Both the position numbers and the translations under genes were made by a program. From a virus (taxonomy: Duplodnaviria > Caudoviricetes): 41,693 nucleotides of DNA. The DNA is taken from positions 1 through 41,693 of IMG/VR virus record IMGVR_UViG_3300049009_000456, one strand, 5' to 3'. Position 1 is the stretch's first letter; each line of letters opens with the position of its first letter. Positions 1,927 to 39,702 of this stretch are shown piece by piece. The notes beneath the pieces are model-generated. The model did not search any database. It worked only from the letters and a program-made list of their open reading frames with translations, and had not been told where the DNA came from.

Positions 1927-3083
1927 AGCTTCCCGCGCACAGTAAATTAGGAGCTTCCGGAAGTCACCGCTGGTTCCATTGCCCCGGCAGCGTGAAGCTG
2001 ATCGAGGCCATGGGCGACGCGCCCAAGAAGTCCAGCTCTTACGCCGACGACGGCACGCTGGCGCACGACATCGCGGCACGCTGCCTGAAGTCGGGCGAGG
2101 ACGCCGTGGTCTATCTCGGTGAGGCGGACTTCGCCACCGAGGCCGAGTTCAAGGAGGAAGATGCTGTCGCGGTGCAGATATACTTGGACCATATTCGCGG
2201 CAAGATAGACGATCTTGGTCTGCGCGGAAACAAACTGGGGTCGCGGGTCTTGGTGGAGGAGCGCTTCCACCTGGCCGAGGTGCATCCCGACTTCTTCGGG
2301 ACCACCGACTGCACCCTGATTGGGGACAAGCAGGCGGTTGTGGCCGATTATAAACACGGCGCCGGTATCATGGTATCCGCCGAGAAGAACACCCAGCTTA
2401 TGCAGTACGCCGTGGGCGCGCTGTACGGAACGGAGGCATGGCAGGATGACGACTTCCCCGTCGAGATCAACATATGCCAGCCGCGAGTATACGGGGTGGA
2501 GCCTGTTAGATCGTGGTGGACAAGCGTGGGCGCGCTCAAGACATGGCTGCGTGACGATTGGCTTGCCGCCGCAAGAAGGACAGAACAGTCGGCTCCATTT
2601 CTACAGCCAGGTTCGTGGTGCAACTCCACCTTCTGCCCCAAACGACTGACCTGCCCCGCGATCAAGGAACTGCGGGCGCGCGTCCTGACCTACACACCGG
2701 AGATCATCAAGGCCATGGAAGACTGGGAACTGGGCCTCGCGGCCACCGAGACGAACATCGTGAAGGGCCTGGCCAAGGTCTTCGACGAGGAAATCTTCAC
2801 CCGCCTGCGCGCCGGTAAGCAGGTCAGCGGTTGGAAGATGGTGGCCAAGAAGGCCGACCGTGTGTTCAAGGATGACGCCCCGCTCGACGAGACGTTCGGT
2901 GACGCCGCCTACGAGAAGAAGCGCAAGACGCCGCCCGCGATCGAGAAGCTGCCCGAAGGCAAGAAGTTCGTGGCCCAGTGGGCGTACAAGCCCGACACCG
3001 GCATGACCGTGGCCCCGGACACCGACGCTCGATCGGGGCAGGCGGTGCGAAACCGTGACGAAGTTTTCAAAGGGGTGTTGTAA
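1917..3083 (+). CDS. Cas4-like PD-(D/E)XK exonuclease (DUF2800 type)
   Basis: HSKLGASGSHRWFHCPGS, GTLAH, FGTTD, DYKHGAG, QLMQYA, WC..FCP..TC. Confidence 0.9.
   Translation: MQVELPAHSKLGASGSHRWFHCPGSVKLIEAMGDAPKKSSSYADDGTLAHDIAARCLKSGEDAVVYLGEADFATEAEFKEEDAVAVQIYLDHIRGKIDDLGLRGNKLGSRVLVEERFHLAEVHPDFFGTTDCTLIGDKQAVVADYKHGAGIMVSAEKNTQLMQYAVGALYGTEAWQDDDFPVEINICQPRVYGVEPVRSWWTSVGALKTWLRDDWLAAARRTEQSAPFLQPGSWCNSTFCPKRLTCPAIKELRARVLTYTPEIIKAMEDWELGLAATETNIVKGLAKVFDEEIFTRLRAGKQVSGWKMVAKKADRVFKDDAPLDETFGDAAYEKKRKTPPAIEKLPEGKKFVAQWAYKPDTGMTVAPDTDARSGQAVRNRDEVFKGVL
2446..2649 (+). CDS. Candidate overprinted 67-aa ORF (+1 frame) in the nuclease gene
   Basis: GGAGG at 2432-2436, ATG 2446; host codons shift to ATA/CGA/GTA/AGA/ACA/CCA over this span. 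Confidence 0.45.
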   Translation: MTTSPSRSTYASREYTGWSLLDRGGQAWARSRHGCVTIGLPPQEGQNSRLHFYSQVRGATPPSAPND

Positions 3084-3106
3084 GCGTAAGCGTAGCGTGG
3101 CATAAT
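3078..3106 (+). promoter_or_regulatory. sigma70-like promoter for SSB
   Basis: TTGTAA-N17-CATAAT with extended TG. Confidence 0.6.
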
Positions 3107-3145
3107 AGTTGGGTTAAATGATAACACTTTGAAAGGTAATTGCAG

Positions 3146-3799: not shown

Positions 3800-3858
3800 G
3801 CCATGTGAGACGCACTCGCCTACGGGTCCAACTAATCGAGGGACTAGTATAGCCCCAC

Positions 3859-3885: not shown

Positions 3886-3926
3886 ATGCCGGATAGCGCA
3901 TACCACCATTTTATGCGGGAAATTGA

Positions 3927-4538
3927 ATGAAAGTTCTTGTGGGCTGTGAGGAGAGCGGCAAGGTGCGTGACGCTTTCCTGCGGCGCGGCCACGATGCCTG
4001 GTCCAATGACCTGATCGCGGCCCGTAACGGCGGCCCGCACCTTCAGATGGACGTCATGCAGGCGCTCGACGAGCAGGAGTGGGACCTCACCATCCTCCAC
4101 CCGGATTGCACGTCCATGGCCGTGAGCGGCAACCGCTACTACGGGATTGGCAAGCCGGATCACTGGCAGCGCGAGGCGCAGGTACAGTGGACCGTGACGT
4201 TGTGGGAGAAGGCCAAGCGCATAGCGAAGAAGGGCGTGGTGCTGGAGAACCCGGCTAGCGTTATCTTCCCGGTGCTGCGGGCGCAGGGCGCGGTGATCCA
4301 GTATATCCACCCTTGGCAGCACGGCCATCTGGAGCAGAAGAAGAAGACCGGCCTCGCGCTGGATCGCCTGCCACTTCTGAAGGAAACCAACAACGTCTAT
4401 GAGGAAATGATAAAGCTGCCTTCGAAGGAACGCGAGCGCATCTGGAACATGTCTCCGGGAGAGAACCGCAAGCGCGATCGCAGCGAGACGTTCGACGGGA
4501 TAGCGGCGGCGCTGGCCGAGCAGTACGGTTCGCTCTAG
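3927..4538 (+). CDS. Short C5-cytosine methyltransferase-like protein
   Basis: VLVGCEESG (motif I-like), HPDCT (catalytic Cys), LENP (motif VI), RSETFDGIAAALAEQY. Confidence 0.75.
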   Translation: MKVLVGCEESGKVRDAFLRRGHDAWSNDLIAARNGGPHLQMDVMQALDEQEWDLTILHPDCTSMAVSGNRYYGIGKPDHWQREAQVQWTVTLWEKAKRIAKKGVVLENPASVIFPVLRAQGAVIQYIHPWQHGHLEQKKKTGLALDRLPLLKETNNVYEEMIKLPSKERERIWNMSPGENRKRDRSETFDGIAAALAEQYGSL

Positions 4539-6553
4539 TGCATATCACGATCGACTTCGAAAGCTACTCCGAGGCCGACCTGAAGAAGACGGGGGCCTAT
4601 AGGTATTCGGAGCATCCCAGCACCGAAGTCCTGTGCGTGGCCTATGCCTTCAACGACGAGAAGCCGCGCCTGTGGCACCTTGGTATCGAGGGCGAGGAGT
4701 TCGGCCCGCAGTATCTATTTATGGCGCTTAACGCGGGAGCCCCGATCGTCGATGCCCATAATGTCGGCTTTGAGCGCGCGATATGGGAGAATGTCTGCGT
4801 TAAGCGCATGGGCTGGCCCGAGATCGAGGCCCACCAGTTTGACTGTACAATGGCCCGCGCGGCCAGTCGGGCGCTGCCTCTCGGGCTGGAGCAGTGTGCC
4901 AGCGCACTCGGGCTGGACGTGCGTAAGGACAAGCGCGGCAAGCAGTTGATCCAGCTTCTCTGCAAGCCGCAGAAGCCCAAGAAGAAAGACCCGCGCACCC
5001 GCATCCAGGACCCGGAGCTGCTGGCCGAGCTGTACGATTACTGCCTTCAGGACGTGAGGGTGGAGCAGCGTATCCGCCGCGAGCTGGGCGCCCTGCCTGC
5101 CCCCGAGCGGGGCGTGTTCCTGCTGAACGAAAAGATGAACTCCCGCGGTATCACGATCGACGTCGAGAGCGTCCACAACGCCATCGCGGTCGTGAGCCAG
5201 GTGGAGAAAGAGCTTACCGCGGAGCTGGTTGATATCACGGGCGGCAGGATACGCACGGCCAATCAGGTGGCCGAGATACTGGACTTCGTACAATGGAAAG
5301 TTGATGGAGGGCTGGATGATCTCACGGCAGACACCGTCGCAGCGGCGATCCCTCGCGCGGAAAAAGGCAGCGTCGAAAGGCGGGTCCTTGAGATACGGCA
5401 TTCCCTGGCCAAGGCCAGCACAAAGAAGCTGTCTGGACTGCTTGCGGCTGTGTGCGTGGATGGCCGTGTACGTGGTCTTAGCCAGTATCATGGTGCTTTT
5501 ACTGGACGCAACGCCGGTCGGCTAGTGCAGCCGCTCAACCTGCCCCGCCCTGTACTAGGCGCGGACCCGGAGGGCCTTGTCGAGGCCATCGCCTTGCGCG
5601 ATCCCGACTGGCTGCGTATGCTGTACGGCGACCCTATGCAGTGCGTGGCCGACGCGCTGCGTTCCATGTTCGTGGCGGGGGAGGGCAAGAACCTCTGCGC
5701 CGTGGACCTGGCCTCGATCGAGAGTGTGGGTATTGCGGCCATTGCAGGCGAGGAGATTAAACTTGATCTATTCAGGCGTGGCGATGATCCTTATTGCGCT
5801 TTTGCTAGTGATGTGTTTGGGCGTCCTATTACAAAGGCCAACGACCCCCGAGAGCGGCAGGAAGTGGGAAAAGTTGGAGAGCTGGCTTTTGGGTTTGGCG
5901 GCGGGGTTGGCGCTTGGCGTAATTTTGATGACAGTGACAAGTTCGATGACGATGAGGTGAACGCATTCAAGAATGTGTGGCGGCGCAAGCACCCCCACAT
6001 CGCCCGCCCGCCGTGGGACCAGGCGGTGAAGGACGGCGAGGCCGGGGTGGGCCTGTGGTATGGCCTCCAGGACGCGGCGCACGAGGCGGTGCTGCATCCT
6101 GGCAGGCAGGTAGAGGCGTTCGGTGTGAAGTACCAGGTGAGGGGGCGCTGGCTGGTCTGCACCCTGCCTTCATCCCGCAACATCGTCTACTACGATCCCC
6201 GCCTCCAGGAGAAGATCAACCCCCACACGGACAAGACCGAAGTGGTGCTGACCTACATGAGCCAGAAGAACGGCCACTGGGCGAGGATCGATACGTGGGG
6301 CGGGAAGCTGGCGCAGGGCGTGACGCAGGCTACGTGCCGCGATATCCTGGTGCACGGCCAGCGTAGGTGCGACGGGGAGATGCCTGTGCTTATGACCGTC
6401 TATGACGAGATCGTCACCGAGGTGGATGAAGGCTTGGGAACGGAAATTCCGGTTACAAGGCTCCTAGATTACATGACCGGGGAGCTTCCTGCATGGTGCG
6501 CTCACTGGCCAGTTAAAGCAGAGGGATGGTGTGGAAAACGCTATCGTAAGTGA
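4538..6553 (+). CDS. polA: Family A DNA polymerase with 3'-5' exonuclease (SPO2/APSE type)
   Basis: Exo motifs IDFES, AHNVGFER, YCLQDV; motif A DLASIE; motif B R..K...LAFGFG; motif C VYDE. Confidence 0.95.
   Translation: MHITIDFESYSEADLKKTGAYRYSEHPSTEVLCVAYAFNDEKPRLWHLGIEGEEFGPQYLFMALNAGAPIVDAHNVGFERAIWENVCVKRMGWPEIEAHQFDCTMARAASRALPLGLEQCASALGLDVRKDKRGKQLIQLLCKPQKPKKKDPRTRIQDPELLAELYDYCLQDVRVEQRIRRELGALPAPERGVFLLNEKMNSRGITIDVESVHNAIAVVSQVEKELTAELVDITGGRIRTANQVAEILDFVQWKVDGGLDDLTADTVAAAIPRAEKGSVERRVLEIRHSLAKASTKKLSGLLAAVCVDGRVRGLSQYHGAFTGRNAGRLVQPLNLPRPVLGADPEGLVEAIALRDPDWLRMLYGDPMQCVADALRSMFVAGEGKNLCAVDLASIESVGIAAIAGEEIKLDLFRRGDDPYCAFASDVFGRPITKANDPRERQEVGKVGELAFGFGGGVGAWRNFDDSDKFDDDEVNAFKNVWRRKHPHIARPPWDQAVKDGEAGVGLWYGLQDAAHEAVLHPGRQVEAFGVKYQVRGRWLVCTLPSSRNIVYYDPRLQEKINPHTDKTEVVLTYMSQKNGHWARIDTWGGKLAQGVTQATCRDILVHGQRRCDGEMPVLMTVYDEIVTEVDEGLGTEIPVTRLLDYMTGELPAWCAHWPVKAEGWCGKRYRK
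5316..5525 (+). CDS. Candidate overprinted 69-aa protein, basic N-terminus plus one C-terminal TM (+1 frame in polA)
   Basis: GGAGG at 5306-5310, ATG 5316; LCAWMAVYVVLASIMVLLL; codon-anomaly patch ends at the TAG. Confidence 0.55.
   Translation: MISRQTPSQRRSLARKKAASKGGSLRYGIPWPRPAQRSCLDCLRLCAWMAVYVVLASIMVLLLDATPVG
5763..5960 (+). CDS. Candidate overprinted 65-aa two-TM protein (+1 frame in polA)
   Basis: GAGGAG at 5750-5755, TTG 7 nt later; two hydrophobic helices joined by a charged loop; coincides with a T-ending codon patch. Confidence 0.6.
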   Translation: MIYSGVAMILIALLLVMCLGVLLQRPTTPESGRKWEKLESWLLGLAAGLALGVILMTVTSSMTMR

Positions 6554-7011: not shown

Positions 7012-7131
7012 CTAGGTGTTGATCTCCCGGTCGAGCGCCTGCTAAACTACATGACCGCCGATCTTCCGGCATGGTGCGCGCATTGGCCTGTCAAGGCGGA
7101 AGGCTGGTGCGGCAAACGGTACAGGAAATAG
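7012..7131 (+). pseudogene. Displaced original 3' end of polA (39 codons plus TAG)
   Basis: LGVDLPVERLLNYMTADLPAWCAHWPVKAEGWCGKRYRK*, 32/39 identical to polA 6434..6553; stop abuts the ATG at 7132. Confidence 0.95.
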
Positions 7132-7455: not shown

Positions 7456-7646
7456 TGGCCAAGCTGGATGGGGTCAGCAAAGAGCTGTATCCGGGGGAAG
7501 CGGAGGGTGTGCTTCGGGGAATAGAGCGCCGCCGCAAGGCCGCCGAGCGCACGAACTTCCGCATATCCAACGAGCGGCTGGTCGAGCGCAAGGTGGCCTC
7601 GGGCTACAAGATCGTGTACAAGAACATCGGAGGGTTCCGAGCTTGA
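7455..7646 (+). CDS. Hypothetical basic protein, 63 aa
   Basis: TAATG coupling, GGAGGAG SD, normal codon usage. Confidence 0.75.
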   Translation: MAKLDGVSKELYPGEAEGVLRGIERRRKAAERTNFRISNERLVERKVASGYKIVYKNIGGFRA

Positions 7647-9031
7647 AGCGATATCTGTTCTCGTCGATCCAGAACGACACCCCGCTCCACCGTCCGACCT
7701 GGAACAACCTGCTGGCCCTGGCCAAGCACTACCAAGCCGAGATCGTCCTATCCCGGTTCGTCTATGACCTGTCCGTGCATAACGAAAGCGGCAAACCGGG
7801 AGCCAAGTCGGCGCGTGAAGAACGATCCTGGGCCAGGGACGCGATGCCCTACGTCTGCGACGAACGCAGGCTTATAGCCCCTGGCCTTGAATGGTGCGGC
7901 GAACTGCAAATACTGCCCACCGCCCGCCGCCCGATCAGCGGCTTCGAAAGCTACACCGGGCGCAACTCCTGCATAATTCCCCACCCCAAACTCGCGCTCG
8001 AAAGCGTAGCATCGGGGAAACACGAGGGTACGAAGCTGATCTACACGACCGGCTGCGTCTCCCGGAAAAACTACATCCAGAAGAAGGCGGGCCAGGTGGC
8101 GCAGTTCCACCATAGCTATGGCGCCCTGCTGGTCGAAGTCTCGGAACGGGGGTGGTTCTGCCGCCAGATCACGGCGGCCAATAACGGCACCATGTACGAC
8201 CTGGACGTTCGCGTCAAGGACGGCAAGGTATCCACGGGCCACCGCGTCGAGGCGATCGTGTGGGGTGACGCCCACGCCCGAAAGGCCGACCCTACCGTGG
8301 CCAAGATGGCGTGGGCCAAGGGCGGTATTCTGGACACCCTTCGCCCCAAGCGGCAGGTCTTTCACGACCTTCTGGACTTCCACGCGCGTAACCATCACGA
8401 GATCGGCAACGGCAGGATGCGCTTTAGACGCTACGTCGGGGCGCCTGAAGATGACTGTGTTGGCGCGGAACTGGATGAAGTTGCCGTCGAACTGGCCAAG
8501 CGTAGCCGCGCATGGTGCGAGAGTATTGTGGTTGCGAGCAATCACGATGGAGCCCTCCTTCGGTGGCTGGACACTGCGGATTACAGGTCTGATCCAAGGA
8601 ATGCGCTCACGTTTCTGGAGTTGCAGTCCGCCGTATATAAATCGGAGGTCGACAAGAACCGCCGCTTCTCCGTGTTCGAGTATGCTATGATGGAACGCGG
8701 CGTGAAGAACGTGAATTTTCTCCGAGAGGACGACAGCTATGTCATCTGTAAGGATAGCCATGGCGGCATTGAACTTGGTATGCATGGGCATCTTGGTGTC
8801 AACGGTGGTCGTGGTTCCATGCTCGGTTTTGCTCGCATGGGGCGTAAAAGTTTCATTGGGCATGGCCATCGAGCCGGTATTACTGATGGGGTATGGATGG
8901 TTGGGACTAGCAGTCTCATGGACCTTGGCTACAATCGTGGTCCTGGTGCTTGGTCGCATACGTTCGGCGTAGCCTACGCGAACGGCAAGCGGTGCATGGT
9001 GACGATCTACAATGGAGCGTGGCATGGTTAG
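7643..9031 (+). CDS. Calcineurin-like metallophosphoesterase/nuclease resembling T5 A1-family proteins
   Basis: WGDAH, HDLLD, SNHD, HGH, GHGH metal motifs; NYIQKKAGQVAQFHHSYGALLVE recalled from A1-like proteins. Confidence 0.75.
   Translation: MKRYLFSSIQNDTPLHRPTWNNLLALAKHYQAEIVLSRFVYDLSVHNESGKPGAKSAREERSWARDAMPYVCDERRLIAPGLEWCGELQILPTARRPISGFESYTGRNSCIIPHPKLALESVASGKHEGTKLIYTTGCVSRKNYIQKKAGQVAQFHHSYGALLVEVSERGWFCRQITAANNGTMYDLDVRVKDGKVSTGHRVEAIVWGDAHARKADPTVAKMAWAKGGILDTLRPKRQVFHDLLDFHARNHHEIGNGRMRFRRYVGAPEDDCVGAELDEVAVELAKRSRAWCESIVVASNHDGALLRWLDTADYRSDPRNALTFLELQSAVYKSEVDKNRRFSVFEYAMMERGVKNVNFLREDDSYVICKDSHGGIELGMHGHLGVNGGRGSMLGFARMGRKSFIGHGHRAGITDGVWMVGTSSLMDLGYNRGPGAWSHTFGVAYANGKRCMVTIYNGAWHG
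8451..8690 (+). CDS. Candidate overprinted 79-aa ORF (+1 frame)
   Basis: Matches a T/A-ending codon patch (~8420-8690); SD weak. Confidence 0.35.
   Translation: MTVLARNWMKLPSNWPSVAAHGARVLWLRAITMEPSFGGWTLRITGLIQGMRSRFWSCSPPYINRRSTRTAASPCSSML
8739..8972 (+). CDS. Candidate overprinted 77-aa polytopic membrane protein (+1 frame)
   Basis: GAGGA at 8726-8730, ATG 8739; about half of host codons end in T across exactly this span; almost wholly hydrophobic with basic ends. Confidence 0.65.
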   Translation: MSSVRIAMAALNLVCMGILVSTVVVVPCSVLLAWGVKVSLGMAIEPVLLMGYGWLGLAVSWTLATIVVLVLGRIRSA

Positions 9032-9488
9032 GTGCAGTGATTGCGGCGCAAGGGGCGGGCACTTCAAGTGGTGCGGGGTGAAGCACATGGAGAGTGAGCC
9101 GATCGCGCCGCTGGGCGCCAAGACTCCGGTGTTCAATGAGGAGAGTGAGCCGCTGGCTGGGGTAGGCCCCGTGTGGCAGAAGCCGTCACTGGCCGGGAGC
9201 TACAACAACATCTCCTCGCCCGCGCACTACGCGCGCTTCACCATCCAGCCGATCGACTTCATTGAGGCCAACGGGCTGGACTTCCTTCAGGCCAGTGTGC
9301 TGAAGTACCTCGTGCGCTTCCCGTTCAAGAACGGTGTGGAAGACCTGCACAAGGCGAGGGATATGCTCAACCGCCTTATCAAGCGGGAGGAAGACAAGCT
9401 AGTGGGGGATGCGGGGCAGGAGGTTGGCGGCGAGCCAGCTACCGACAACCCCGAAGACCGCGCTGATCGCGCCTACCGTACCGAGTAG
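9024..9488 (+). CDS. DUF3310 (T7 gp1.7/SaV-like) protein with N-terminal CxxC
   Basis: ISSPAHY...QPIDFI...VLKYLVRFPFKNGVEDLHKA; GGAG SD. Confidence 0.85.
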   Translation: MVRCSDCGARGGHFKWCGVKHMESEPIAPLGAKTPVFNEESEPLAGVGPVWQKPSLAGSYNNISSPAHYARFTIQPIDFIEANGLDFLQASVLKYLVRFPFKNGVEDLHKARDMLNRLIKREEDKLVGDAGQEVGGEPATDNPEDRADRAYRTE

Positions 9489-9641
9489 CTTGGAACGGCT
9501 CTGCTCCAGGGAGCTGACGCGGGTCGAGATGGACGCGGCGCCTTCCTGGAGCAGGTATTTGATATCCTTGACATCCTGCTCCAGCCTGTCGACCTTGCCT
9601 TCGACACGACCCAGTGAGCGCTCGATCTGCTGGTCTTCCAT
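9399..9641 (-). CDS. Coiled-coil plus C-terminal TM protein (XhlA/holin-like)
   Basis: Heptad N-terminus, LLGTVGAISAVFGVVGSWLA; TAATG-coupled to the tail fibre gene. Confidence 0.65.
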   Translation of the reverse strand: MEDQQIERSLGRVEGKVDRLEQDVKDIKYLLQEGAASISTRVSSLEQSRSKLLGTVGAISAVFGVVGSWLAANLLPRIPH

Positions 9642-26157: not shown

Positions 26158-27033
26158 TCACCAAGCCGGGATGTAGCGAGTGGTGCCGTTGTCGATGATC
26201 TTGATCCACGTTGTCGGATTACCAGCAGCGGGCGCATTGGTCAGCGTGCCGACCTGAGCGCCCGCGCCGCTGGTGAACGTGCCCGTCGATGTGAGCGCGG
26301 CTGTCGTGACGCCCGGAACCGTTAGCACACCGCCGAGGGTGAGGGAGGTAGAGATAGCCACCGCATTGGTCGTCGCGGCGAACGTCAGAACAGCGGCGTT
26401 GTTTGCGCCTATGCCAAGCGTGCCGCCTGCAACCGTGTTCAAAATCAAAGAGGCATCTGTCGCACTATTATGGGCAACTTGGAAACCAGCCGAGTTGCTA
26501 AGACCGCCGAAGACTCGAAACGTCGCTGTGGCGTTTCCAGATGCCGCACCTGCTATGGTTGTACTCCCAATTACAGACGAAGTGCCTGTAGCGGCAAATG
26601 CCGCCATAGTTGTAAGACCGCTAAACGTCGCCGCACCAGCCGTGATCGGTGCGTCTGCGCTGTCGTCTGCAAGCCGGAAGTTAAGTGCAGTGGCGTTGCG
26701 CTTGATCGCCGGGAAGCTCGACGTGGTGCCGCCGAATTGGAGGCGGGAGAAGTCGGTCTGTGCGTTGTTCAAAAGTTTAATGACGCCATCGGACGGCGAT
26801 GCCATCAAAGACCGAGCATTCCAATAAAAACTTCCACCAGCAGCCGCTTGGAACGCAGTTGAAGTATTGGTGTATCCCGTTGAGTCCACGTTGCCGGTGA
26901 AATGGGTCGTGCCCGTCACCGCGAGCGCATGGGAGCCGAGGCTCGCGCCGCCTAGGGCGAGGGAGGGCGCAACCTGCGCGCCCGTGAAGGTGTTCGCGCC
27001 GAGGGTGGCTTGGCCGCCATTTATGCGGATCAT
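26158..27033 (-). CDS. Secondary fibre/spike-like structural protein
   Basis: Thr/Ala/Gly-rich; ANTFTGAQ; C-terminal WIKIIDNGTTRYIPAW. Confidence 0.7.
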   Translation of the reverse strand: MIRINGGQATLGANTFTGAQVAPSLALGGASLGSHALAVTGTTHFTGNVDSTGYTNTSTAFQAAAGGSFYWNARSLMASPSDGVIKLLNNAQTDFSRLQFGGTTSSFPAIKRNATALNFRLADDSADAPITAGAATFSGLTTMAAFAATGTSSVIGSTTIAGAASGNATATFRVFGGLSNSAGFQVAHNSATDASLILNTVAGGTLGIGANNAAVLTFAATTNAVAISTSLTLGGVLTVPGVTTAALTSTGTFTSGAGAQVGTLTNAPAAGNPTTWIKIIDNGTTRYIPAW

Positions 27034-27989: not shown

Positions 27990-28146
27990 CGACCGAAGGC
28001 CACCAGGTTTCCGGGGAGCCGCACTCGGGGCAGCAATCCGGGATCGGAGAGCGCGGGTTGGGCTTCAGCTCCTTGACCGCGCCTACCCACCCACAGTCGT
28101 CGCAGGTAGCAAACTCGTTCTTGTTCTCATCCTTTGGCGACGGCAT
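27982..28146 (-). CDS. 54-aa zinc-ribbon protein (CDDC...CPEC)
   Basis: AAGGA SD; MPSPKDENKNEFATCDDCGW...CCPECGSPETWW; not in the ORF track. Confidence 0.75.
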   Translation of the reverse strand: MPSPKDENKNEFATCDDCGWVGAVKELKPNPRSPIPDCCPECGSPETWWPSVDG

Positions 28147-28648
28147 CCATCTGATCCTTCAGCTTGAGTTTCCGGAGGGAGAACGCCCAGCGCAAGGCGC
28201 GCTCGTAGCCGGGGTTGTTCTTGCACCCCCGCATGTGGGCCGCGAACGAAGCCCGCTCGGACGGCTCCAGGGTACGCCAGCGCCCGGCGTTCACGTCGGC
28301 TAGTAACGCGAAGGCTTCGGCCTGCTCGTGGCCCCAGTCCCGGCTGACGGGGTATAGACGGTCGTGAACGGCATGCCCGATTTCATGTACGAGTTGTGCA
28401 ACTCCCGCCGTCGCAGGGCAGAAAAGGAATGAGGTAGTAGCAGCACTGTCGGAAACGAAAGCTGGTCTTCCGGAATGAACAGGTCCAGTTGGACGGGTAA
28501 AGCCCCATTGGGTGACGAGTTCTTCGACATACTCACTCCTGAAGTAATCATCCACGATCCTGACGCCCTTGAGGCCCGCCCACAGATGGTTGCCCCACAC
28601 GCAGTGGGCGACCATCATCTCCGCGCCGGTAGCACTACGAAACTGCAT
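28127..28648 (-). CDS. HExxH zinc metallopeptidase-like protein (ImmA/IrrE-like)
   Basis: LVHEIGHAVH then HEQAEAFA; start overlaps the terL stop (TGATG). Confidence 0.7.
   Translation of the reverse strand: MQFRSATGAEMMVAHCVWGNHLWAGLKGVRIVDDYFRSEYVEELVTQWGFTRPTGPVHSGRPAFVSDSAATTSFLFCPATAGVAQLVHEIGHAVHDRLYPVSRDWGHEQAEAFALLADVNAGRWRTLEPSERASFAAHMRGCKNNPGYERALRWAFSLRKLKLKDQMDAVAKG
28300..28530 (-). CDS. Candidate overprinted 76-aa protein with a QLDLF motif (+1 frame)
   Basis: AGGAG at 28540-28536, ATG 5 nt later; VQLDLFIPEDQLSF; codon-anomaly patch in the host gene. Confidence 0.6.
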   Translation of the reverse strand: MSKNSSPNGALPVQLDLFIPEDQLSFPTVLLLPHSFSALRRRELHNSYMKSGMPFTTVYTPSAGTGATSRPKPSRY

Positions 28649-30099
28649 CACATTTCCGCCGTTGATTGGGAATGATCCTGGCCCGCCTCGGGAGCAAAAC
28701 GACGCAACCCCATGGCCAGGGTCCTCAGTGCATCCGCACTGTGAGATGTCCAATCGTGCTTGGGCTTCTGCCGGAATACCTGTTGCCGTTCATCATACTC
28801 TCGGTGGTACAGAGCCACGCGGTCAAGGCCATCTTGCGTGCTGCTGGCGTCGAAGAGGCATCTTGGCAGAAGCATTCGTACTGATGCAATGCCGTCCTCC
28901 ACGTTGGCGCGCGGAACAGTGACGCCGCGAACTCCAAGGGCACGGAGGACCGAGGCTCGCGATTTTCCGCTGCCCAGCTCCGTAACTTCGACATCGTGAG
29001 GCCAGTAGTGTCTGCCATAGCGATAACCCTTCTTCTCCAGAATGTCGGCGTAGTGGTCTAGCGCGGCGCCGCTAGCTTCATAGTAATCGATGACCCGCAC
29101 TTCGTTAGCGACACATTGTACGAACCAGATAGCCGTACAGTCGTCGAAGCCAAGGTCCCATCCGGTGTGGACCGGAAGGAGCGGATTGTAGGGCACCGCA
29201 CGGATACGGTCACGATCCTTGAGTTCGGCAAGCTGCTTGGCGTAGATGGCGCCCTTGACGGCGGCGTCCCAACTGCACTCGTACTCCTGCTCGTAGGCGT
29301 CGTCATCGTTCATGTCCATCTTGGCCAGGCGAAGCTCCTCGGGATTGAGGACACCAGTCTGGCTGGCCTTCCACAACTCCGCGGCCCAGTCACTACGATA
29401 GACGATTTCCTCGCCCGCCGCACTGTCGATCTCGCCGCCACCCATCTTGGCGCCGAGCCCTTGAGCCCACAACTCCGCGCGGCGGTGCATGTGGTGAGCA
29501 TGGTTGCGCCCGAAGGGCGTCGTCATAAAGATCGCCCACTGGTTCGGGTCGAGGCGATTGTCGAAGCCGTTACGGTTTACGTCCGACAGCATCGGGCGGA
29601 CCTGCTGGGTCCACACATGCGGTGGTATCTGCGCCCACTCGTCGAACACGACACCATCGAGGTACATCCCGCGTAGGCGTTGCTTGGGTGTATCCGTCCC
29701 ATAAAGGGCAATCTGCGCACGTCCACCCAAACGGGTGGGTAACTCGACAGTGAGCTTGCTCTCCATCTTCTCCGCGGTTGGTATCCTGTCCGCGAAGTCC
29801 TTCAGGTACGTCCATGCAATGTTCCTCGCCATGTCATAGGTCGGCGCCAGGTAAGCGTACCGCCCGTTGGTGAAAGGACACTCGATCGCTTTCTCGCCCA
29901 GCGCGTTCACGGCCAGGACCGACTTCCCGAAGCGCCTGTGGACCACCCACGAGTTGAAGCGCTTCATGCGCTCGTACATCTGGCCCTGCAAGGGGCGCGG
30001 GATGAAGCGCGTCAGCTCGCGGATATCTTCCGGCAGGTCGACGATGCGGTTGTTCTGTGTGGCTTTTACGATAGCCGCAACCTTGGCAACGAGGCTCAA
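28648..30099 (-). CDS. terL: Terminase large subunit
   Basis: VHRRFGKS (Walker A), YLAPT, LRGMYLDGVVFDE (Walker B), TTPFGRN, GWDLG, HDWTSHSADALR. Confidence 0.95.
   Translation of the reverse strand: MSLVAKVAAIVKATQNNRIVDLPEDIRELTRFIPRPLQGQMYERMKRFNSWVVHRRFGKSVLAVNALGEKAIECPFTNGRYAYLAPTYDMARNIAWTYLKDFADRIPTAEKMESKLTVELPTRLGGRAQIALYGTDTPKQRLRGMYLDGVVFDEWAQIPPHVWTQQVRPMLSDVNRNGFDNRLDPNQWAIFMTTPFGRNHAHHMHRRAELWAQGLGAKMGGGEIDSAAGEEIVYRSDWAAELWKASQTGVLNPEELRLAKMDMNDDDAYEQEYECSWDAAVKGAIYAKQLAELKDRDRIRAVPYNPLLPVHTGWDLGFDDCTAIWFVQCVANEVRVIDYYEASGAALDHYADILEKKGYRYGRHYWPHDVEVTELGSGKSRASVLRALGVRGVTVPRANVEDGIASVRMLLPRCLFDASSTQDGLDRVALYHREYDERQQVFRQKPKHDWTSHSADALRTLAMGLRRFAPEAGQDHSQSTAEM
28725..29018 (-). 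CDS. Candidate overprinted 97-aa ORF (+1 frame in terL)
   Basis: AAGGG 8 nt upstream; spans the T/A-ending codon patch of the nuclease domain. Confidence 0.45.
   Translation of the reverse strand: MADTTGLTMSKLRSWAAENREPRSSVPLEFAASLFRAPTWRTALHQYECFCQDASSTPAARKMALTAWLCTTESMMNGNRYSGRSPSTIGHLTVRMH
29570..29815 (-). CDS. Candidate overprinted 81-aa Cys-rich ORF (+2 frame in terL)
   Basis: GAGGA 7 nt upstream; HC...WTCADCPLW...WC...C; matches a codon patch. Confidence 0.5.
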   Translation of the reverse strand: MDVPEGLRGQDTNRGEDGEQAHCRVTHPFGWTCADCPLWDGYTQATPTRDVPRWCRVRRVGADTTACVDPAGPPDAVGRKP

Positions 30100-32879: not shown

Positions 32880-33632
32880 CTATCTCCCCGCCTTGAACAT
32901 GTTAGCCCCCGCGCCATGGGCGACGATGGCGATAGACTTGGCCGCGACGCTAGCCCCACCACACAGGCCGCACTTGTCGCACGTGGTCCGGTACCCGGCC
33001 TCTGCACTGGCAGGGCACAACACCTCTTTGTGGCGCACGATATCGGAGCGGTCCCAAATCACCCTAAACGTGCGCGCACCAGCATTCCAAGCTTGCCAAG
33101 CCGCACTTTCGCTGTCAGCCGATACCATGTAGCGCGATGCATCGTAGGTCGATTGCGCCATGCCGCTTTGGTGGCTGTATGCCGTGTGGCCAGCCGCTTG
33201 TGACAGCAAACTATCCCAAACGTATGAAGGAACCGCCGCGCCGTCGCCATAGGTGCCAATGCGCACCATACGGTCCGCGCCAATCGCCGCGATTGCCTTG
33301 TGACCTGTGGCCACAGGATAGATGCCGCGCAACATGGATTTGTAGACTATGAGCGGACCTTGATCTATGCGCACATAACAGGTCCGGCCAGTAGCTAGCC
33401 CCGTGACGTAGTTATTGGGCGAACCACGGTGCGGGCAGGTACCGCAGATGGAAGCATCTTGGCCAGTGCGATTAGCTTCACGAGGGTCAATGTCGGCACG
33501 CAGGATATAGGTCTGCACCATGTCAGCGGTCTTTGAGTTTTTTGACCGCGATATGGCAATGGCCACAATGGGCGCGCCATCAAGGGCGCTAGGCCCTTTG
33601 TATATGATAAAACCCGTAGGCTTTTTGATCAT
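32880..33632 (-). CDS. Cys-rich GP88-related (radical-SAM-like, Fe-S) early protein
   Basis: NSKT, CGTCP...CY, VRIGTYGD, AYSH, CPA...TCDKCGLC...IAIVAHG; GAGGAG SD. Confidence 0.65.
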   Translation of the reverse strand: MIKKPTGFIIYKGPSALDGAPIVAIAISRSKNSKTADMVQTYILRADIDPREANRTGQDASICGTCPHRGSPNNYVTGLATGRTCYVRIDQGPLIVYKSMLRGIYPVATGHKAIAAIGADRMVRIGTYGDGAAVPSYVWDSLLSQAAGHTAYSHQSGMAQSTYDASRYMVSADSESAAWQAWNAGARTFRVIWDRSDIVRHKEVLCPASAEAGYRTTCDKCGLCGGASVAAKSIAIVAHGAGANMFKAGR

Positions 33633-34805: not shown

Positions 34806-34831
34806 CGCTACACGCCACCCCTTGGTTCACT

Positions 34832-36805
34832 TCATTCCTGTGTGCTGTTTTCCTCAACTACCCTCTTGAAGCATAACCCATTGATATCACACAAGTATTT
34901 TGCAAGAGGGTGTTCGGCCTGAACTTCGCCTTTCTTGACGACGGCCTTGATGAAACGCCTCACGCCACCGCGATTTGCTTCAGGCCCCAGCTCGGTCATC
35001 ATGAAGTTCAGCACCTCGTCTCGCCCCAGTTCGAAATTGGGCGCCGCGGCCTCCATGACCTTTACCGCCGTCTGCGCCCTCAACTCATCGACCGCGATGA
35101 CCTGCATCTTGGCCGAGCTACCATTCTTCTCGGCTGCGGTATCTTTTTGTGCGTGGCGCTCCTGCTCGATCGGCTCGGCGCGCGAGATCACCAGGGAAGC
35201 TTCCTTCTCGTCGTCGCGCTCGCGGCCCGTTTCCACCTCCTCCAGCGCGATCTTCCACGCCTGCCCGATTGCGCCATCCTTCTGCCTCTCGACCTTCAGC
35301 GTGGCGCTATTCAGTCCGGTGCGCTTCACTGACAGGCCGGTGTCGAGGGCGTTCCACACCGCCGTGGAGCCGCGCCAGTCATGGCCGCCCTTGGGGGTAT
35401 GATGCACCAACAATACACAGCACCCGTACAACTTGCGAAATCCGTCACACGACTGCACCACCCTGCCCATGTCCCTGGCCGAGTTCTCGTCCTGCCCCGG
35501 CGCCGCTCGAGCCAGCGTATCCACCACGATCAGGGCAGGCACCTGGCCGCCCCAATTCTCCGCCACCGCGGTGTTGATGTCCTCGACAGCCTCCATGAGC
35601 TGATCGGTGTCGTCGAGGTTGATGCCGTCGAGGATCGCGAAGTTGTCCGTGATCGTGATGCCCCGCGTCTCGATCGCCAGGGCGCGCGGCTCCACACTTC
35701 CTTCACCGCTGATGAAGACAACTGGGCCATGCGCGACAGCCCTGCCGCCCCACGTTTCCACGCCGGTCGCGATCGCCGCGGCCATGTCGAGCGCAATAAA
35801 CGATTTGTAGGACCCACCGGGACCGTACAGCCCCGCCAGGCTCGACTTCGTGAGAAGGCCCCGCACTAGCCAAGCTGGCGGCGCACGACCCTTGCGCTCT
35901 GACCAAAGGCCAAGGCGCTTACGTCCTCCAGCGCCTTTAGCCTCGCCCACTTGCCGCGCTTCTCCAAGGTCGAAACCTTCGGCGGCTTTGTTGCGGCTTT
36001 CTTCGTTGATCGCGTCGATGCCGGGCTGGCGCTGCCCGTTGCGGTAGGCGGAACGGACTGTCGCATTGAACTCCTCGGGGTTTTCCTGACACAGGGGCGG
36101 GATGCCCGTGACACTCGGATACTCCTCCAGCACCTCGAATATCCTGGCCATGGACAGGCCCAGGTCCTTCAGGGTGCAGGCGGTCTTGAACACGGCCATG
36201 TTGCGCTCGCCTTCCTCGGGGGAAGGCAGGTCCTTGATGTACGCCAGCGCACGCTCGACGTTGGCGGGCTGGTCCAGCTCTACCCTCGGCGTTTCCCGGT
36301 CTTCGGAGACTTCACGCTTGCCCCTTTCGAGGGCTTGCATGAGGCTTCCGGGAGCCCCCATACAATCATCTGCAACGCAGGGCGGCTCATCCCCGTAAGC
36401 GTAGACGAAGCCAAGCCCTCCCTCTCCAGTTCCTCCTCGGGTATCAAGACCTTCACCGAGCAAACGCTGAACGGATGAAGGCGCGCTCCCGAGTAAAAAG
36501 ATATGACGCCCTCCCGAAGGGGTCGATTGTTGAGGGTATTCCCACGCTTCAAAGCCATGTTCTGCCTCCAGTTTGGCCAGCGACGTTTCACCGTCCTTGC
36601 CGTTCTTTACGTCCACGTCGATCACGAAGCAGCCCGCCAGACCCGGCACCGCCGCTACGCGCTTGTCTTCCCAGTCCCACGCCCGGATCGTGGCCTCGTC
36701 GGTGGTGGCCTTCTTCTGCCACTCCGTCAGCGTGGGTACGCCATTGTTATTGCAGGGGAATACCGGCCACCCATGCCTAGCCCAGGCCAATGCACGATCG
36801 AGCAT
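34832..36805 (-). CDS. Bifunctional primase-polymerase fused to an AAA_25/RepA-type helicase
   Basis: GWPVFPC, VIDVDVK, TPSGGRH, LDTRG, EGERN; GPGGSYKS, IVVDTLAR, LLVHH, RGS. Confidence 0.92.
   Translation of the reverse strand: MLDRALAWARHGWPVFPCNNNGVPTLTEWQKKATTDEATIRAWDWEDKRVAAVPGLAGCFVIDVDVKNGKDGETSLAKLEAEHGFEAWEYPQQSTPSGGRHIFLLGSAPSSVQRLLGEGLDTRGGTGEGGLGFVYAYGDEPPCVADDCMGAPGSLMQALERGKREVSEDRETPRVELDQPANVERALAYIKDLPSPEEGERNMAVFKTACTLKDLGLSMARIFEVLEEYPSVTGIPPLCQENPEEFNATVRSAYRNGQRQPGIDAINEESRNKAAEGFDLGEARQVGEAKGAGGRKRLGLWSERKGRAPPAWLVRGLLTKSSLAGLYGPGGSYKSFIALDMAAAIATGVETWGGRAVAHGPVVFISGEGSVEPRALAIETRGITITDNFAILDGINLDDTDQLMEAVEDINTAVAENWGGQVPALIVVDTLARAAPGQDENSARDMGRVVQSCDGFRKLYGCCVLLVHHTPKGGHDWRGSTAVWNALDTGLSVKRTGLNSATLKVERQKDGAIGQAWKIALEEVETGRERDDEKEASLVISRAEPIEQERHAQKDTAAEKNGSSAKMQVIAVDELRAQTAVKVMEAAAPNFELGRDEVLNFMMTELGPEANRGGVRRFIKAVVKKGEVQAEHPLAKYLCDINGLCFKRVVEENSTQE
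35866..36066 (-). CDS. Candidate overprinted 66-aa basic ORF (+1 frame in primase)
   Basis: GAGGAG 4 nt upstream; codon patch in the interdomain linker. Confidence 0.4.
   Translation of the reverse strand: MRQSVPPTATGSASPASTRSTKKAATKPPKVSTLEKRGKWARLKALEDVSALAFGQSARVVRRQLG
36280..36558 (-). CDS. Candidate overprinted 92-aa ORF (+1 frame in primase)
   Basis: GGAGG 6 nt upstream of the ATG; T/A-ending host codons begin here. Confidence 0.55.
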   Translation of the reverse strand: MALKRGNTLNNRPLREGVISFYSGARLHPFSVCSVKVLIPEEELEREGLASSTLTGMSRPALQMIVWGLPEASCKPSKGASVKSPKTGKRRG

Positions 36806-37182: not shown

Positions 37183-37460
37183 CTCTCCGTCTCCTCCTTC
37201 GATACTGCGAGCATGGCGGTCCACGTTTCAACCGCATCCGACGACAAATTGAAAATCTCACGATTGCCCGCCGCACGCATCGCCTCTGTCGGTTTGACCG
37301 GCACCACCGCCAGCCCGTTGGCGGCAAGGTGCGATTCGTAGGCGGTGAAGGCGGCTTCGCACAATTTAGACGCATCGTCCTTGTGCCAGAAACTTGACCA
37401 CGCGACTGATCCAAACATCGCGTCGCGCATCACCTCTATGATCTTGTCGCGGTTGCTCAT
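37179..37460 (-). CDS. Small accessory protein with VVPVKPTEAMRAAG motif (Ead/Ea22-like module)
   Basis: AAGGAG SD; ATGA coupling at both ends. Confidence 0.75.
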   Translation of the reverse strand: MSNRDKIIEVMRDAMFGSVAWSSFWHKDDASKLCEAAFTAYESHLAANGLAVVPVKPTEAMRAAGNREIFNLSSDAVETWTAMLAVSKEETER

Positions 37461-37825
37461 TTCTTCACTCCTTTGGTTCGCTTGCGTCTTTCGTAGTCGC
37501 GCTGCCAGGCAAGGCGGCGTTCTCTTTCTTCGGTGGTTTCGAGAAGACGACTGAAACGGGTCGCAGCAATCTGGCGTTTGTACCAAAGCTTCTCACGAGG
37601 CATTGTACGTGTTCCGCCGCGACTCGTTGATGATCCACGGCGCCGGGCTTTAGCACACTCCAGAACTTCTCCGAGCAGAACACGATCGCCCATCTCCTTC
37701 CCCCAGCGCGGGACTACTTTCAGAAAACCGCTTTGTATCCAACGGCTTACGGTCTTGGGGTACACCCTGGCCACGCGGGCGGCCTGCTCGACGGTCAGCA
37801 CCCGGCGTAGGTTTATCTCATCCAT
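37457..37825 (-). CDS. HTH DNA-binding protein (excisionase/MerR-like) with basic tail
   Basis: LTVEQAARVARVYPKTVSRWIQSGFLK; first gene at the divergent promoter. Confidence 0.8.
   Translation of the reverse strand: MDEINLRRVLTVEQAARVARVYPKTVSRWIQSGFLKVVPRWGKEMGDRVLLGEVLECAKARRRGSSTSRGGTRTMPREKLWYKRQIAATRFSRLLETTEERERRLAWQRDYERRKRTKGVKK
37465..37683 (-). CDS. Candidate overprinted 72-aa ORF (+1 frame in the HTH gene tail)
   Basis: AAGGAG 10 nt upstream of GTG; host codons atypical across the span. Confidence 0.4.
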   Translation of the reverse strand: MFCSEKFWSVLKPGAVDHQRVAAEHVQCLVRSFGTNARLLRPVSVVFSKPPKKENAALPGSATTKDASEPKE

Positions 37826-37899
37826 GATAGCCGAAAAGAAGCCCCTTGTGCCAGTACCGTATAGCACGCTACAATTATTGCGTCGAATTTGGAGGGTTA
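37826..37899. promoter_or_regulatory. Divergent promoter region
   Basis: + strand TTGTGC-N18-TACAAT (37846-37875); genes diverge here. Confidence 0.6.
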
Positions 37900-38079
37900 A
37901 TGGCATCGTCTTTTCGTCTGGAACTGGTCGTCACACGCCGCCAGGTGTCTGACGAGGACTTCGATGACGCGCTCGACAAGCTGCGCGAGATCAAGACCGT
38001 AGCCGACGCCCGCGGCTACGTCCTGCACTACGCCCTGGCGATCTCCGACGACACAGACAAGAAGGACAAACAGAACTAG
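37900..38079 (+). CDS. 59-aa hypothetical protein
   Basis: GGAGGG SD, normal codon usage. Confidence 0.75.
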   Translation: MASSFRLELVVTRRQVSDEDFDDALDKLREIKTVADARGYVLHYALAISDDTDKKDKQN

Positions 38080-39698
38080 TGCTGCTCACACTCAACAACG
38101 ACGTCTACCTTTGGGGCGGGCGCGAAGCTGAAGTCGAGACACTGGCCAAGGATGCCGGTCTAACTCTCTCGACCACGGCTTCGCGCTCGCGCGGGCATAA
38201 CGTCTACTTCACGCCCGAGCCGCACGCGGTCCTGCATCTGTGGAACCACGCCGACGAGAAGGCCAGGGCCGCGCTGCAACCACTGCGTACCGAGTGGGAG
38301 CGCTCCAATATGAACGAGGCGCCCAAGGGTTTTCATGTCCCGGTGCCAGAGTTCTGTGAATTGATGCCATTTCAGATTGCAGGCGTGCATTATGCTAGAG
38401 ACAGAAGTAACTGCCTTATTGGGGATGCACCGGGTCTTGGTAAGACGATCCAAGCCATCGCCCTGGCTAATCTGCGAGGATGCAAAAGGGTCCTTGTGGT
38501 TTGTCCAGCCAACGTGCGCCCCCAGTGGGCTCGCCAAATTAAAATTTGGTCTACGTTGCCGAAAGTCGTCGTCTATCCGGTGTTCAAGTCTTCAGACGGG
38601 GTACACCCGACCGCGAACTACGTCATCACGAGCTTCGAAGTAGCCCGCGACGGGCTATGGGACACACTGCGCTCCTACAACTGGGACCTGTTGGTGATCG
38701 ATGAAGGACATTATCTCAAGACCCCTGACGCCGCGAGAACTCGAGCGCTTTTTGGTGCTAGCAGGCAGAGTAAATGTCGCTATGCTGGAACTGGCGGCAT
38801 TTCTGAACGAGCCGAGCAGATCGTTGCCCTCACTGGAACTCCTCTGCCCAACCGACCCCGCGAATGCTATACGTTGGCAAATGCACTGGACCCCTCGTCC
38901 GTCGACTGGATGAATTTCAATTCGTTCAAGGACCGCTTCAATCCCGGAGGCCGCGACATGGACAGTGGGGCGACGTGGGAATACACCGCTCGCCTGCCCG
39001 AGTTGAACGCCCGTCTGCGCTGTAACTTCATGGTGCGGCGCTTGAAAGAAGACGTGCTGAAGGACCTCCCGGCCAAGCGGTACGAGATCGTGCCGGTGGA
39101 GATGACGGGCAAGATCGCGATGGCCCTGCACGCCGAGAAGATGCTCGATTTCGACGAAGAAGAAATGCTGCGTAGATCGGGAGGCAAGATCGATGGAGCA
39201 ATATCCACGGTACGAAGGCAGATGGGTGAGGCTATGGCGCCAGCGGTCCTGGAACATCTACTTATCCTCCTCGACGGAGGGGTCGAAAAGCTCGTTGTAT
39301 TCGCGCACCATCATGCTGTCCTGGCTGTCCTCCAGAATGGATTGGCCGCGCATGGTGTCCTGCGCGTGGACGGTAACACCAGCGCGAAGGGGAAGCACGG
39401 GGCGGTCGAGAAGTTTAAGTTTGACCCTCGGCTGAAGGTGTTCCTCGGGCAGATGCAGTCGATCGCCACGGGCACGGACGGCCTTCAAGATGTGGCTTCA
39501 CATTGTGTGTTTGCGGAGCAGTCTTGGATTTTTGGTGAAAACGAGCAGGCTGTCGATCGCCTGCATCGCATGGGCCAGAAGGGTTCGGTCCTGGCGCAGC
39601 TCATGGTGGCGCCTGGGTCTATTTCGGAACGCATCCTTGGGCGAAGCATTTCCAAGGGACGCACCGTGCAGAAAGTTTTGGACGGCCAGCCAGCGTAG
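38079..39698 (+). CDS. SNF2-family helicase
   Basis: LMPFQ, DAPGLGKT, LVVCP, IDEGH, LTGTP, MVRRLK, QAVDRLHRMGQ. Confidence 0.95.
   Translation: MLLTLNNDVYLWGGREAEVETLAKDAGLTLSTTASRSRGHNVYFTPEPHAVLHLWNHADEKARAALQPLRTEWERSNMNEAPKGFHVPVPEFCELMPFQIAGVHYARDRSNCLIGDAPGLGKTIQAIALANLRGCKRVLVVCPANVRPQWARQIKIWSTLPKVVVYPVFKSSDGVHPTANYVITSFEVARDGLWDTLRSYNWDLLVIDEGHYLKTPDAARTRALFGASRQSKCRYAGTGGISERAEQIVALTGTPLPNRPRECYTLANALDPSSVDWMNFNSFKDRFNPGGRDMDSGATWEYTARLPELNARLRCNFMVRRLKEDVLKDLPAKRYEIVPVEMTGKIAMALHAEKMLDFDEEEMLRRSGGKIDGAISTVRRQMGEAMAPAVLEHLLILLDGGVEKLVVFAHHHAVLAVLQNGLAAHGVLRVDGNTSAKGKHGAVEKFKFDPRLKVFLGQMQSIATGTDGLQDVASHCVFAEQSWIFGENEQAVDRLHRMGQKGSVLAQLMVAPGSISERILGRSISKGRTVQKVLDGQPA
38392..38643 (+). 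CDS. Candidate overprinted 83-aa ORF (+1 frame in helicase)
   Basis: Strong T/A-ending codon patch over motifs I-Ia; SD weak. Confidence 0.4.
   Translation: MLETEVTALLGMHRVLVRRSKPSPWLICEDAKGSLWFVQPTCAPSGLAKLKFGLRCRKSSSIRCSSLQTGYTRPRTTSSRASK
38701..38913 (+). CDS. Candidate overprinted 70-aa helical ORF (+1 frame in helicase)
   Basis: GGTGATC (anti-SD complement) at 38693-38699; amphipathic LTPRELERFLVLAGRVNVAMLELAAFLNE; patch starts at the ATG. Confidence 0.55.
   Translation: MKDIISRPLTPRELERFLVLAGRVNVAMLELAAFLNEPSRSLPSLELLCPTDPANAIRWQMHWTPRPSTG
39193..39435 (+). CDS. Candidate overprinted 80-aa ORF (+1 frame in helicase)
   Basis: GGGAGG 8 nt upstream; patch boundaries match. Confidence 0.5.
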   Translation: MEQYPRYEGRWVRLWRQRSWNIYLSSSTEGSKSSLYSRTIMLSWLSSRMDWPRMVSCAWTVTPARRGSTGRSRSLSLTLG

Positions 39699-39702
39699 TT
39701 GA
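39490..39702 (+). CDS. Candidate overprinted 70-aa ORF (+1 frame in helicase)
   Basis: T-ending patch begins at the ATG; GGACGG upstream. Confidence 0.35.
   Translation: MWLHIVCLRSSLGFLVKTSRLSIACIAWARRVRSWRSSWWRLGLFRNASLGEAFPRDAPCRKFWTASQRS

Follow-up and report, generated by a model that had tools for sequence, protein, structure and literature searches.

Conserved +1 reading frames nested in replication and packaging genes of a podovirus-type tailed phage as candidate overprinted genes

We analysed the complete 41,693 nucleotides (nt) of a tailed phage record (IMG/VR IMGVR_UViG_3300049009_000456; Duplodnaviria, Caudoviricetes), hereafter called the window, which has a GC content of 61% and is 95% complete. 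Nine of its genes, among them polA, terL and a primase/helicase gene, contain 13 small open reading frames (ORFs) nested in the +1 frame of the same strand and conserved in related phages. From these comparisons, we consider it likely, with good confidence, that most of the 13 are overprinted genes that are translated and under selection. The original prediction, based on the window alone, had proposed about 15 such genes; the kind of gene is supported, with a count of 13, all in the +1 frame and including four starts (29018, 37683, 38392 and 38701) that it had not named.

Codon-usage patches and conserved nested frames

Relatives were collected by scanning viral and metagenomic contigs and show 55-97% protein identity with the window; more distant outgroups were added. 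Rows below 55% identity and locus L054, whose alignment looks misassembled, were dropped, and two loci, L056 and L021, served as outgroups in the analyses of third-position GC profiles, hydrophobicity and substitution rates. The conservation scan covered all genes with at least six aligned rows (8,410 codons) and all ORFs of at least 50 codons led by a Shine-Dalgarno (SD) motif. An ORF passed when at least 75% of the rows, the window being included in the counts, kept the frame open and had a start no more than 12 codons away. Thirteen of the 20 SD-led +1 ORFs were conserved in SD, start and open frame, and they were exactly those in which the GC content at third codon positions of the host gene (GC3) was 0.65 or lower, the other seven having values of at least 0.67. 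None of seven +2 ORFs passed.

The nested frames coincide with abrupt changes in the codon usage of the host genes. Averaged over the 13 ORFs, clade GC3 is ~0.74 upstream, 0.47 at the nested start and ~0.5 inside, and then goes from 0.58 just before the nested stop to 0.78 right after it. In the outgroups L056 and L021, the host genes are present, average GC3 is flat near 0.8 across the same spans, and most +1 frames are either broken or unrelated. The nested frames thus have a narrower distribution than the host frames, as would be expected of a de novo origin; unrelated +1 ORFs are present at some homologous sites in other phages. At stop-capable contexts in relatives, a stop was found in 6 of 142 cases versus 47.6 expected (four of the six in the 39193 span), a count that is partly circular, because openness in the window was a criterion for choosing the ORFs, and that comes from non-independent relatives.

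Background genes, structural ones included, have a GC3 of ~0.85, and nine genes dip to 0.4-0.65. When synonymous codons were shuffled within each of 24 genes, taking the minimum GC3 over 60 codons as the statistic, the observed minimum lay below that of the shuffles in eight genes: polA, the A1-like gene, the scaffold gene, the gene at 28127 and the primase gene (p = 0.001 each), SNF2 (p = 0.005), the HTH gene (p = 0.015) and DUF2800 (p = 0.018). Patches had been predicted in these eight genes and in terL, whose dip was not significant (p = 0.16). They had also been predicted to be absent from the capsid, tail tube and ejection genes and from most of the portal gene, and the same shuffle indeed detected no significant dip in these or in the nozzle gene.

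Seventeen patches were then defined by GC3 alone and their synonymous codons shuffled among patch positions, a control that the original prediction had itself proposed. The +1 frame contained 31 stops versus 45.2 ± 4.1 in the shuffles (p = 0.001) and 13 SD-led ORFs of at least 55 codons versus 4.7 ± 1.6 (p = 0.001), an outcome that leaves overprinting unrefuted; +2 stops were mildly low (86 versus 102, p = 0.018). Antisense frames were rejected as the cause of the patches, antisense stops not being depleted in the two testable frames (the codon-aligned antisense frame lies outside the reach of the shuffle).

The patches might instead mark conserved enzyme motifs in which codon selection is relaxed or mutation is raised, the +1 ORFs being by-products of stop-poor sequence. 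Third-position divergence is higher in many patches, some patches hold no ORF, and distant relatives have low-GC3 +1 ORFs with unrelated products at homologous motifs, all of which this explanation would accommodate. However, a lower GC3 should add xTA stops, and these are depleted in a context-specific way. A stop in the +1 frame requires xTA before a purine or xTG before A. Within the patches, xTA was used in 12 of 181 leucine, valine and isoleucine codons before purines versus 28 of 130 before pyrimidines, an effect absent elsewhere (33/652 versus 18/356 in the background, 32/140 versus 14/62 in whole low-GC genes). In addition, sites synonymous in both frames are unshifted, and invariant rare codons are enriched 11-fold inside the nested ORFs, with 71 of 613 third positions at invariant host residues being invariant A or T inside versus 27 of 2,574 outside (these counts, like those behind the substitution rates given below, are pairwise and non-independent). 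We therefore regard relaxed selection or raised mutation as very unlikely to explain the patches.

Patches might also have been imported by recombination from a lower-GC phage, an outcome against which the original prediction had asked its claim to be checked. The polA 3' end is such a case: its patch, tried as an overprint and rejected, is explained by an 83-nt, 78% identical duplicate around an inserted HNH gene (6461-6543 and 7039-7121), apparently a homing-endonuclease insertion in place of the C-terminus of polA. The two halves of SNF2 also differ in tree shape, a weak point in favour of import. Inside the 13 ORFs, however, only codon position 3 shifts (GC at first positions, 0.67 versus 0.64; GC3, 0.54 versus 0.79), which argues against imported low-GC tracts. 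The choice between TTR and CTR leucine codons (R being a purine), silent in both frames, stays at background level (TTR in 6/34 versus 26/167, and in 22/55 in low-GC genes), host amino-acid identity to the high-GC3 outgroups is higher inside the nested ORFs than outside in 10 of 11 comparisons, and patch edges coincide with nested starts and stops. Import is thus extremely unlikely as a general cause, and overprinting stands unrefuted by this check.

The nested frames and their predicted products

All ten starts named in the original prediction were found at the stated coordinates together with their SD motifs, and nine of the corresponding ORFs are conserved in relatives. The tenth, a +2 ORF in terL at 29570-29815 (-), was rejected, being conserved in only 5 of 13 rows.

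The frame that offers the clearest functional hint lies at 28300-28530 (-) in an HExxH-motif gene (about 28127-28651) without any Pfam or PHROG match. Open in 10/10 rows, it encodes 76 amino acids (aa), including the peptide QLDLFIPE. Its first five residues, at 28477-28491 (-), where the host codons read CCA ACT GGA CCT GTT CAT, correspond to a consensus for binding the replication beta-clamp; QLDLF is described as the strongest pentameric clamp motif in work that gives the clamp-binding motif (CBM) as QL(S/D)LF (PMC11139829), and the C protein of phage Mu (MuC) is reported to use CBMs and to be lethal when overexpressed (PMC12867686). The host gene spells QLDLFIPE with a run of six rare codons, each with an unvarying third position in 10/10 clade rows, and the sole host residue change beneath it (His to Tyr) is silent in the +1 frame. 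QLDLF is missing from the outgroup L021 and arises in 0 of 1000 shuffles; the remainder of the 76-aa product is variable. A six-frame scan of the window found three clamp-like matches, none of them within an annotated frame.

Among phage proteins that act on the clamp, Gp168 of phage Twort differs in blocking the DNA channel rather than the CBM pocket that a QLDLF motif would target. MuC is alike in its use of CBMs but is a transcription activator, whereas here the motif sits in an overprinted peptide. On balance, we favour the idea that the QLDLF protein may compete for the host DnaN and thereby hamper host replication, which seems its likeliest role because polA and a primase are encoded by the phage itself. 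Alternatively, the protein may recruit the clamp, as MuC does. Only for this protein among the nested products would a role in host takeover be plausible.

Three frames encode hydrophobic products. Two lie in polA (4538-6553), each conserved in 8/8 rows: one at 5316-5525 (+) of 69 aa, with a basic N-terminus and one hydrophobic segment (maximum Kyte-Doolittle score, KD19, 2.58 versus 0.87 in the null, p = 0.002), and one at 5763-5960 (+) of 65 aa, starting with TTG after GAGGAG and having two hydrophobic segments (p = 0.001). The latter is the fastest-evolving product, the rate of changes synonymous in the host frame and nonsynonymous in the nested frame (pSN) being 0.72 versus 0.39 in the rest of polA. 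The third, of 77 aa, lies at 8739-8972 (+) in the A1-like gene (7643-9031; PHROG 1745), is conserved in 10/11 rows with an ATG in 10/10 rows, and gives p = 0.002 in the same hydropathy comparison. All three are thus hydrophobic beyond a pooled-patch null (p = 0.001-0.002) and remain so in all aligned relatives; they are probably inner-membrane proteins. The original prediction had cautioned that T at the third host position automatically makes the +1 frame hydrophobic. Third-position T does create this hydrophobicity, but its placement is ORF-specific, and its frequency is raised in two of the hydrophobic ORFs (0.43 and 0.48 versus 0.29 and 0.28 in the null).

In the scaffold gene (22761-23744), a frame conserved in 8/8 rows (23498-23695 (-), 65 aa) encodes a product rich in E, L, A and Q and coiled-coil-like, overlying the Gly-rich N-terminal linker of the host protein. 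The ORF had been predicted to start at 23710, which would give 70 aa. As the ATG at that position occurs in only 3 of 9 rows, the start is most likely at 23695. Twenty-four database proteins have been called in this nested frame. We rejected the possibility that it is a free-standing upstream gene, because the host frame stays open and its start and a Y[DE]GE motif are conserved, outgroup included. Over the same linker, outgroup L021 has its own +1 ORF (9464 (+)), hydrophobic instead of coiled-coil-like.

Among the remaining frames, one of 67 aa at 2446-2649 (+) in the DUF2800 exonuclease gene (1902-3083) follows a GGAGG motif, is conserved in 8/9 rows and has a fast-evolving product. In terL (28648-30099), a 97-aa frame lies at 28725-29018 (-), conserved in 9/11 rows, with a start that could be later (28889). 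The Prim-Pol primase/helicase gene (34832-36805) carries two, each in 10/10 rows: a basic one of 66 aa at 35866-36066 (-), whose ratio of changes nonsynonymous in both frames to those nonsynonymous only in the host frame (NN/NS) is 0.20, and one of 92 aa at 36280-36558 (-) over the Prim-Pol domain, with the conserved core HPFxVCSVxV.

Four conserved frames lie in two genes on either side of a divergent junction. In the HTH_17 gene (37457-37906), a 72-aa frame with a GTG start occupies the C-terminal half (37465-37683 (-), 7/7 rows), and its invariant A/T third positions number 16 of 44. The SNF2 helicase gene (38079-39698) contains frames of 83 aa (38392-38643 (+), weak SD, 11/12 rows), 70 aa (38701-38913 (+), 11/13 rows) and 80 aa (39193-39435 (+), 11/14 rows). 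The 38392 span shows the strongest synonymous constraint of all (pSN 0.094 versus 0.452), and its invariant A/T third positions number 22 of 70. At 39193, all 11 displayed rows with an open frame carry the SD, a GGAGG that draws on rare GGA codons, the four rows with stops lack it, and three rows without the ATG have an adjacent TTG; L033 and L051 were excluded from the substitution-rate estimate for this frame. The constraint at 38392 and 37683 might instead stem from a recent sweep or a cis-acting element, in DNA or RNA, close to the primase/SNF2 junction, since both spans flank that single junction (37457-38643), the SD of 38392 is weak and pSN is very low. We find this quite unlikely: the rate of changes synonymous in both frames (pSS) is high while pSN is low (0.589 versus 0.094 and 0.351 versus 0.179, on small counts), which fits selection on a +1 protein.

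Two further +1 ORFs are weak candidates. One in SNF2 (39490-39702 (+)) is open in 8/13 rows, with SD and start in 3/13, and is lineage-restricted or decayed; the other, in the A1-like gene (8451-8690 (+)), is open in 3/9 rows, patch and open frame being found in some lineages only.

Selection on the nested products

The ratio pSN/pSS is 0.65 inside the nested ORFs versus 1.21 outside. Constraint on amino acids is clear for the 38392 product, the HTH product and the QLDLF motif, weaker for the scaffold, primase and terL products, and absent for six fast-evolving products. A simple mechanism would link codon usage with the nested frames. Ribosomes may initiate at the internal SD sites on the mRNA of the host gene. 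In the +1 frame, the wobble base of the host codon is the middle base of the nested codon, as follows from the code, and its choice could tune the nested protein without altering the enzyme, T giving hydrophobic and A polar or charged residues. Selection on the nested amino acids would override the preference for GC-ending codons and so produce the observed patches. The resulting set would be one of birth and death, with some products constrained, others turning over at a near-synonymous rate, and some lineages keeping a low-GC3 scar with a broken frame. The products are probably accessory proteins interacting with the host.

Several observations weigh against reading the 13 frames as selected genes. 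The conservation filter yields false positives, 7 of 43 antisense ORFs having passed it (six of these where GC3 is high and such shadows are to be expected), and some SDs result from the default codons of host residues. Patches without any conserved alternative ORF occur at terL codons ~117-161 and ~290-348, A1 codons 46-90 and the polA 3' end; together with the two weak candidates, they make it an overstatement that nearly every patch holds an open frame. A low GC3 is thus possible without an intact frame, as illustrated by the two terL patches and by L033, L051 and L054, which have a GC3 of 0.53-0.60 over the 39193 span despite stops. For six products (2446, 5763, 8739, 28530, 38701 and 39193), pSN exceeds the value in the remainder of the host gene, and substitutions in the nested proteins are not of a more conservative kind than the background (BLOSUM -0.65 versus -0.52). 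No PHROG match, and no Pfam match at cut-off, was found for 11 nested products, a scan that left 29018, 37683, 38392 and 38701 outside. Profile searches with three products returned only proteins of the same family (2 for the primase product, 24 for the scaffold product and 2 strong ones for the QLDLF product), plus two weak repeat-type matches for QLDLF.

The terL patches lie at 29617-29751 and ~29058-29232 (-) and combine low GC3 with very high synonymous divergence in the clade. We would read the terL and A1 patches that hold no conserved ORF and the broken 39193 frames as decayed or lineage-specific overprints. Structural searches added little: an AlphaFold model of the primase nested product had a mean predicted local distance difference test score of 52.6 and was not used, an ESM Atlas search with the same product gave no lead (best score 0.83), and a PDB sequence search with the scaffold nested product gave 0 matches.

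The rapid turnover of six products, at a near-synonymous or faster rate and without bias towards conservative substitutions, and the broken frames of some lineages would be expected if the frames were translated with most peptides doing little. Selection would then target the traffic of ribosomes on the mRNA or their internal initiation, and few products (QLDLF, 38392, HTH, scaffold and primase) would function as proteins. Yet translation alone needs no fall of GC3 along a whole ORF with recovery at its stop, nor the raised third-position T of two hydrophobic ORFs and the hydrophobicity kept in relatives of all three. We judge it unlikely that most products do little. Fast evolution is reported for young overprinted viral genes, under weak or positive selection (PMC8227390).

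Genome context and known overprinted genes

The window encodes a podovirus morphogenesis module (portal PF12236, capsid PF19821, nozzle and internal virion proteins), together with polA, DUF2800, SSB, Prim-Pol/AAA_25, SNF2 and three HNH-type endonucleases. The names 'scaffold', 'A1-like' and 'peptidase' are assumed labels, taken over in part from the earlier reading; by profile, the first gene matches PHROG 3742/458, the second PHROG 1745 and the third no family. The record ends repeat each other at 90-95% identity (1-757 and 40524-41280 at 90%; 1071-1493 and 41271-41693 at 95%), so the genome is probably circular, of ~40.5 kb. The repeats are not identical, and one copy alone has an extra gene (689-1075); two strain variants joined in a circular assembly are a likely origin. 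No cultured close relative was found, the best matches among those listed reaching ~35% for polA and ~40% for terL. No prophage relative was found, and as a scan of GTDB genomes with polA gave no relative, we assign no host. Among the sequencing runs listed as containing the phage, none was of RNA.

Other features of the window include low-GC3 stretches in the gene at 26158-27033 (-), which had no relative among the collected loci, and in a DUF7227 gene (32880-33632 (-)), whose +1 frames have no conserved SD or start. A near-consensus sigma-70 promoter (11/12) lies at 39699-39728 (+), directly after SNF2 and upstream of the gene preceding the endolysin. An 80-aa ORF after the tail fibre gene (9399-9641 (-)), with a coiled-coil-like N-terminus and a hydrophobic C-terminus, is presumably holin-like. 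The original prediction had attributed overprinting to a limit on genome size. Such pressure is unsupported, because the nested ORFs total ~3 kb in a genome that spends 1.4 kb on HNH genes and has 11 gaps of at least 120 nt between the listed genes.

Overprinting is known in kind, and we found no report of a density of 13. The closest comparison is phage T7, whose record (NC_001604) lists five nested same-strand genes, all in the +1 frame: 4.1 and 4.2 in the primase/helicase gene, 18.7 in the Rz gene, and 19.2 and 19.3 in terL. Gene 4.2 is reported as dispensable (PMC11482910), and 19.2 and 19.3 as hypothetical, with proposed lysis roles (PMC8365609). T7 is likewise a podophage of similar size with small same-strand +1 genes in its primase/helicase and terL genes. 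It differs in having five nested genes rather than 13, which here also occupy polA, SNF2, exonuclease, scaffold and HTH genes, and in its host gene families, and no family match ties the tested products to T7 proteins. The original prediction knew of no tailed phage with this many overprinted genes; our literature search, of incomplete coverage, likewise found none with more than T7, but the precedent had been understated. Nested genes are visible here because the background GC3 is ~0.85, a contrast that T7 does not offer.

In mycobacteriophage Patience, mass spectrometry is reported to support two same-strand ORFs embedded in gene 91 (Pol III alpha) and gene 20 (PMC4324244). They resemble ours in being out of frame, on the same strand and equipped with a ribosome-binding site inside a polymerase gene, and differ as two well-supported cases described with ambiguous conservation, whereas ours are 13 conserved frames known from sequence alone. 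A distribution restricted relative to the host frame is shared with genes E and K of phiX174 and with the pattern of Sabath and Pavesi; as far as that review literature goes (PMC8227390), it concerns coliphage phiX174 and small eukaryotic viruses, whereas here many overlaps occur in one tailed-phage clade.

A patch scan applied to single genomes gave eight matches per 9,808 codons in the window, 5.7-16.7 per 10,000 in 10 clade loci, 2.4-9.3 per 10,000 in seven outgroup loci, 0 in five distant loci and four in the 33,987 codons of RpY1, BPP-1 and phiKMV together. It found 0 of the five known nested genes of T7, so it is blind without GC3 contrast and T7 cannot be compared by it. Several outgroup matches and that of RpY1 fall on the Prim-Pol, polA or SNF2 motifs that are overprinted in the window, and encode unrelated products. 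SD-led low-GC3 +1 ORFs lie over the Prim-Pol motif in L056 (4690 (-)), L034 and L036 (9334 (-)), L035 (8484 (-)), L037 (4774 (-)) and L087, which is RpY1 (3252 (-)). The primases concerned are only 30-43% identical overall, their nested products are unrelated, and the RpY1 domain is annotated as an integrase; either an ancient overprint or a recurrent hot spot would account for this recurrence. phiKMV (L089) has two SD-led +1 ORFs that are missing from its annotation, one of 111 aa at 32029 (+) inside gp37 and one of 247 aa at 19065 (+) inside the RNA polymerase gene; host GC3 is lowered in both.

More tentatively, and with appreciably less confidence than in the 13 frames themselves, we suggest that the +1 frame of essential enzymes may serve as a standing nursery in which at least 13 overprinted proteins have been born, diversify at the speed of wobble sites and die without touching the enzymes, one of them with a perfect beta-clamp motif that would stop host replication. 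With Prim-Pol, polA and SNF2 overprinted repeatedly in distant phages, hidden second proteomes might then be general in podophages. Nested genes escape gene callers and knockout screens, so that ~13 proteins per genome would be unannotated in this clade, and they would be lost if such phages were refactored or synonymously recoded. Low-GC3 patches with a step at the +1 stop offer a cheap screen for them in GC-rich phages, and the QLDLF peptide is a concrete candidate for an inhibitor of host replication that would have arisen inside another gene. The clade also offers 13 instances of de novo gene birth that are parallel and can be aligned, constrained, fast-evolving or decayed, which make the origin of new proteins and their gain of function testable.

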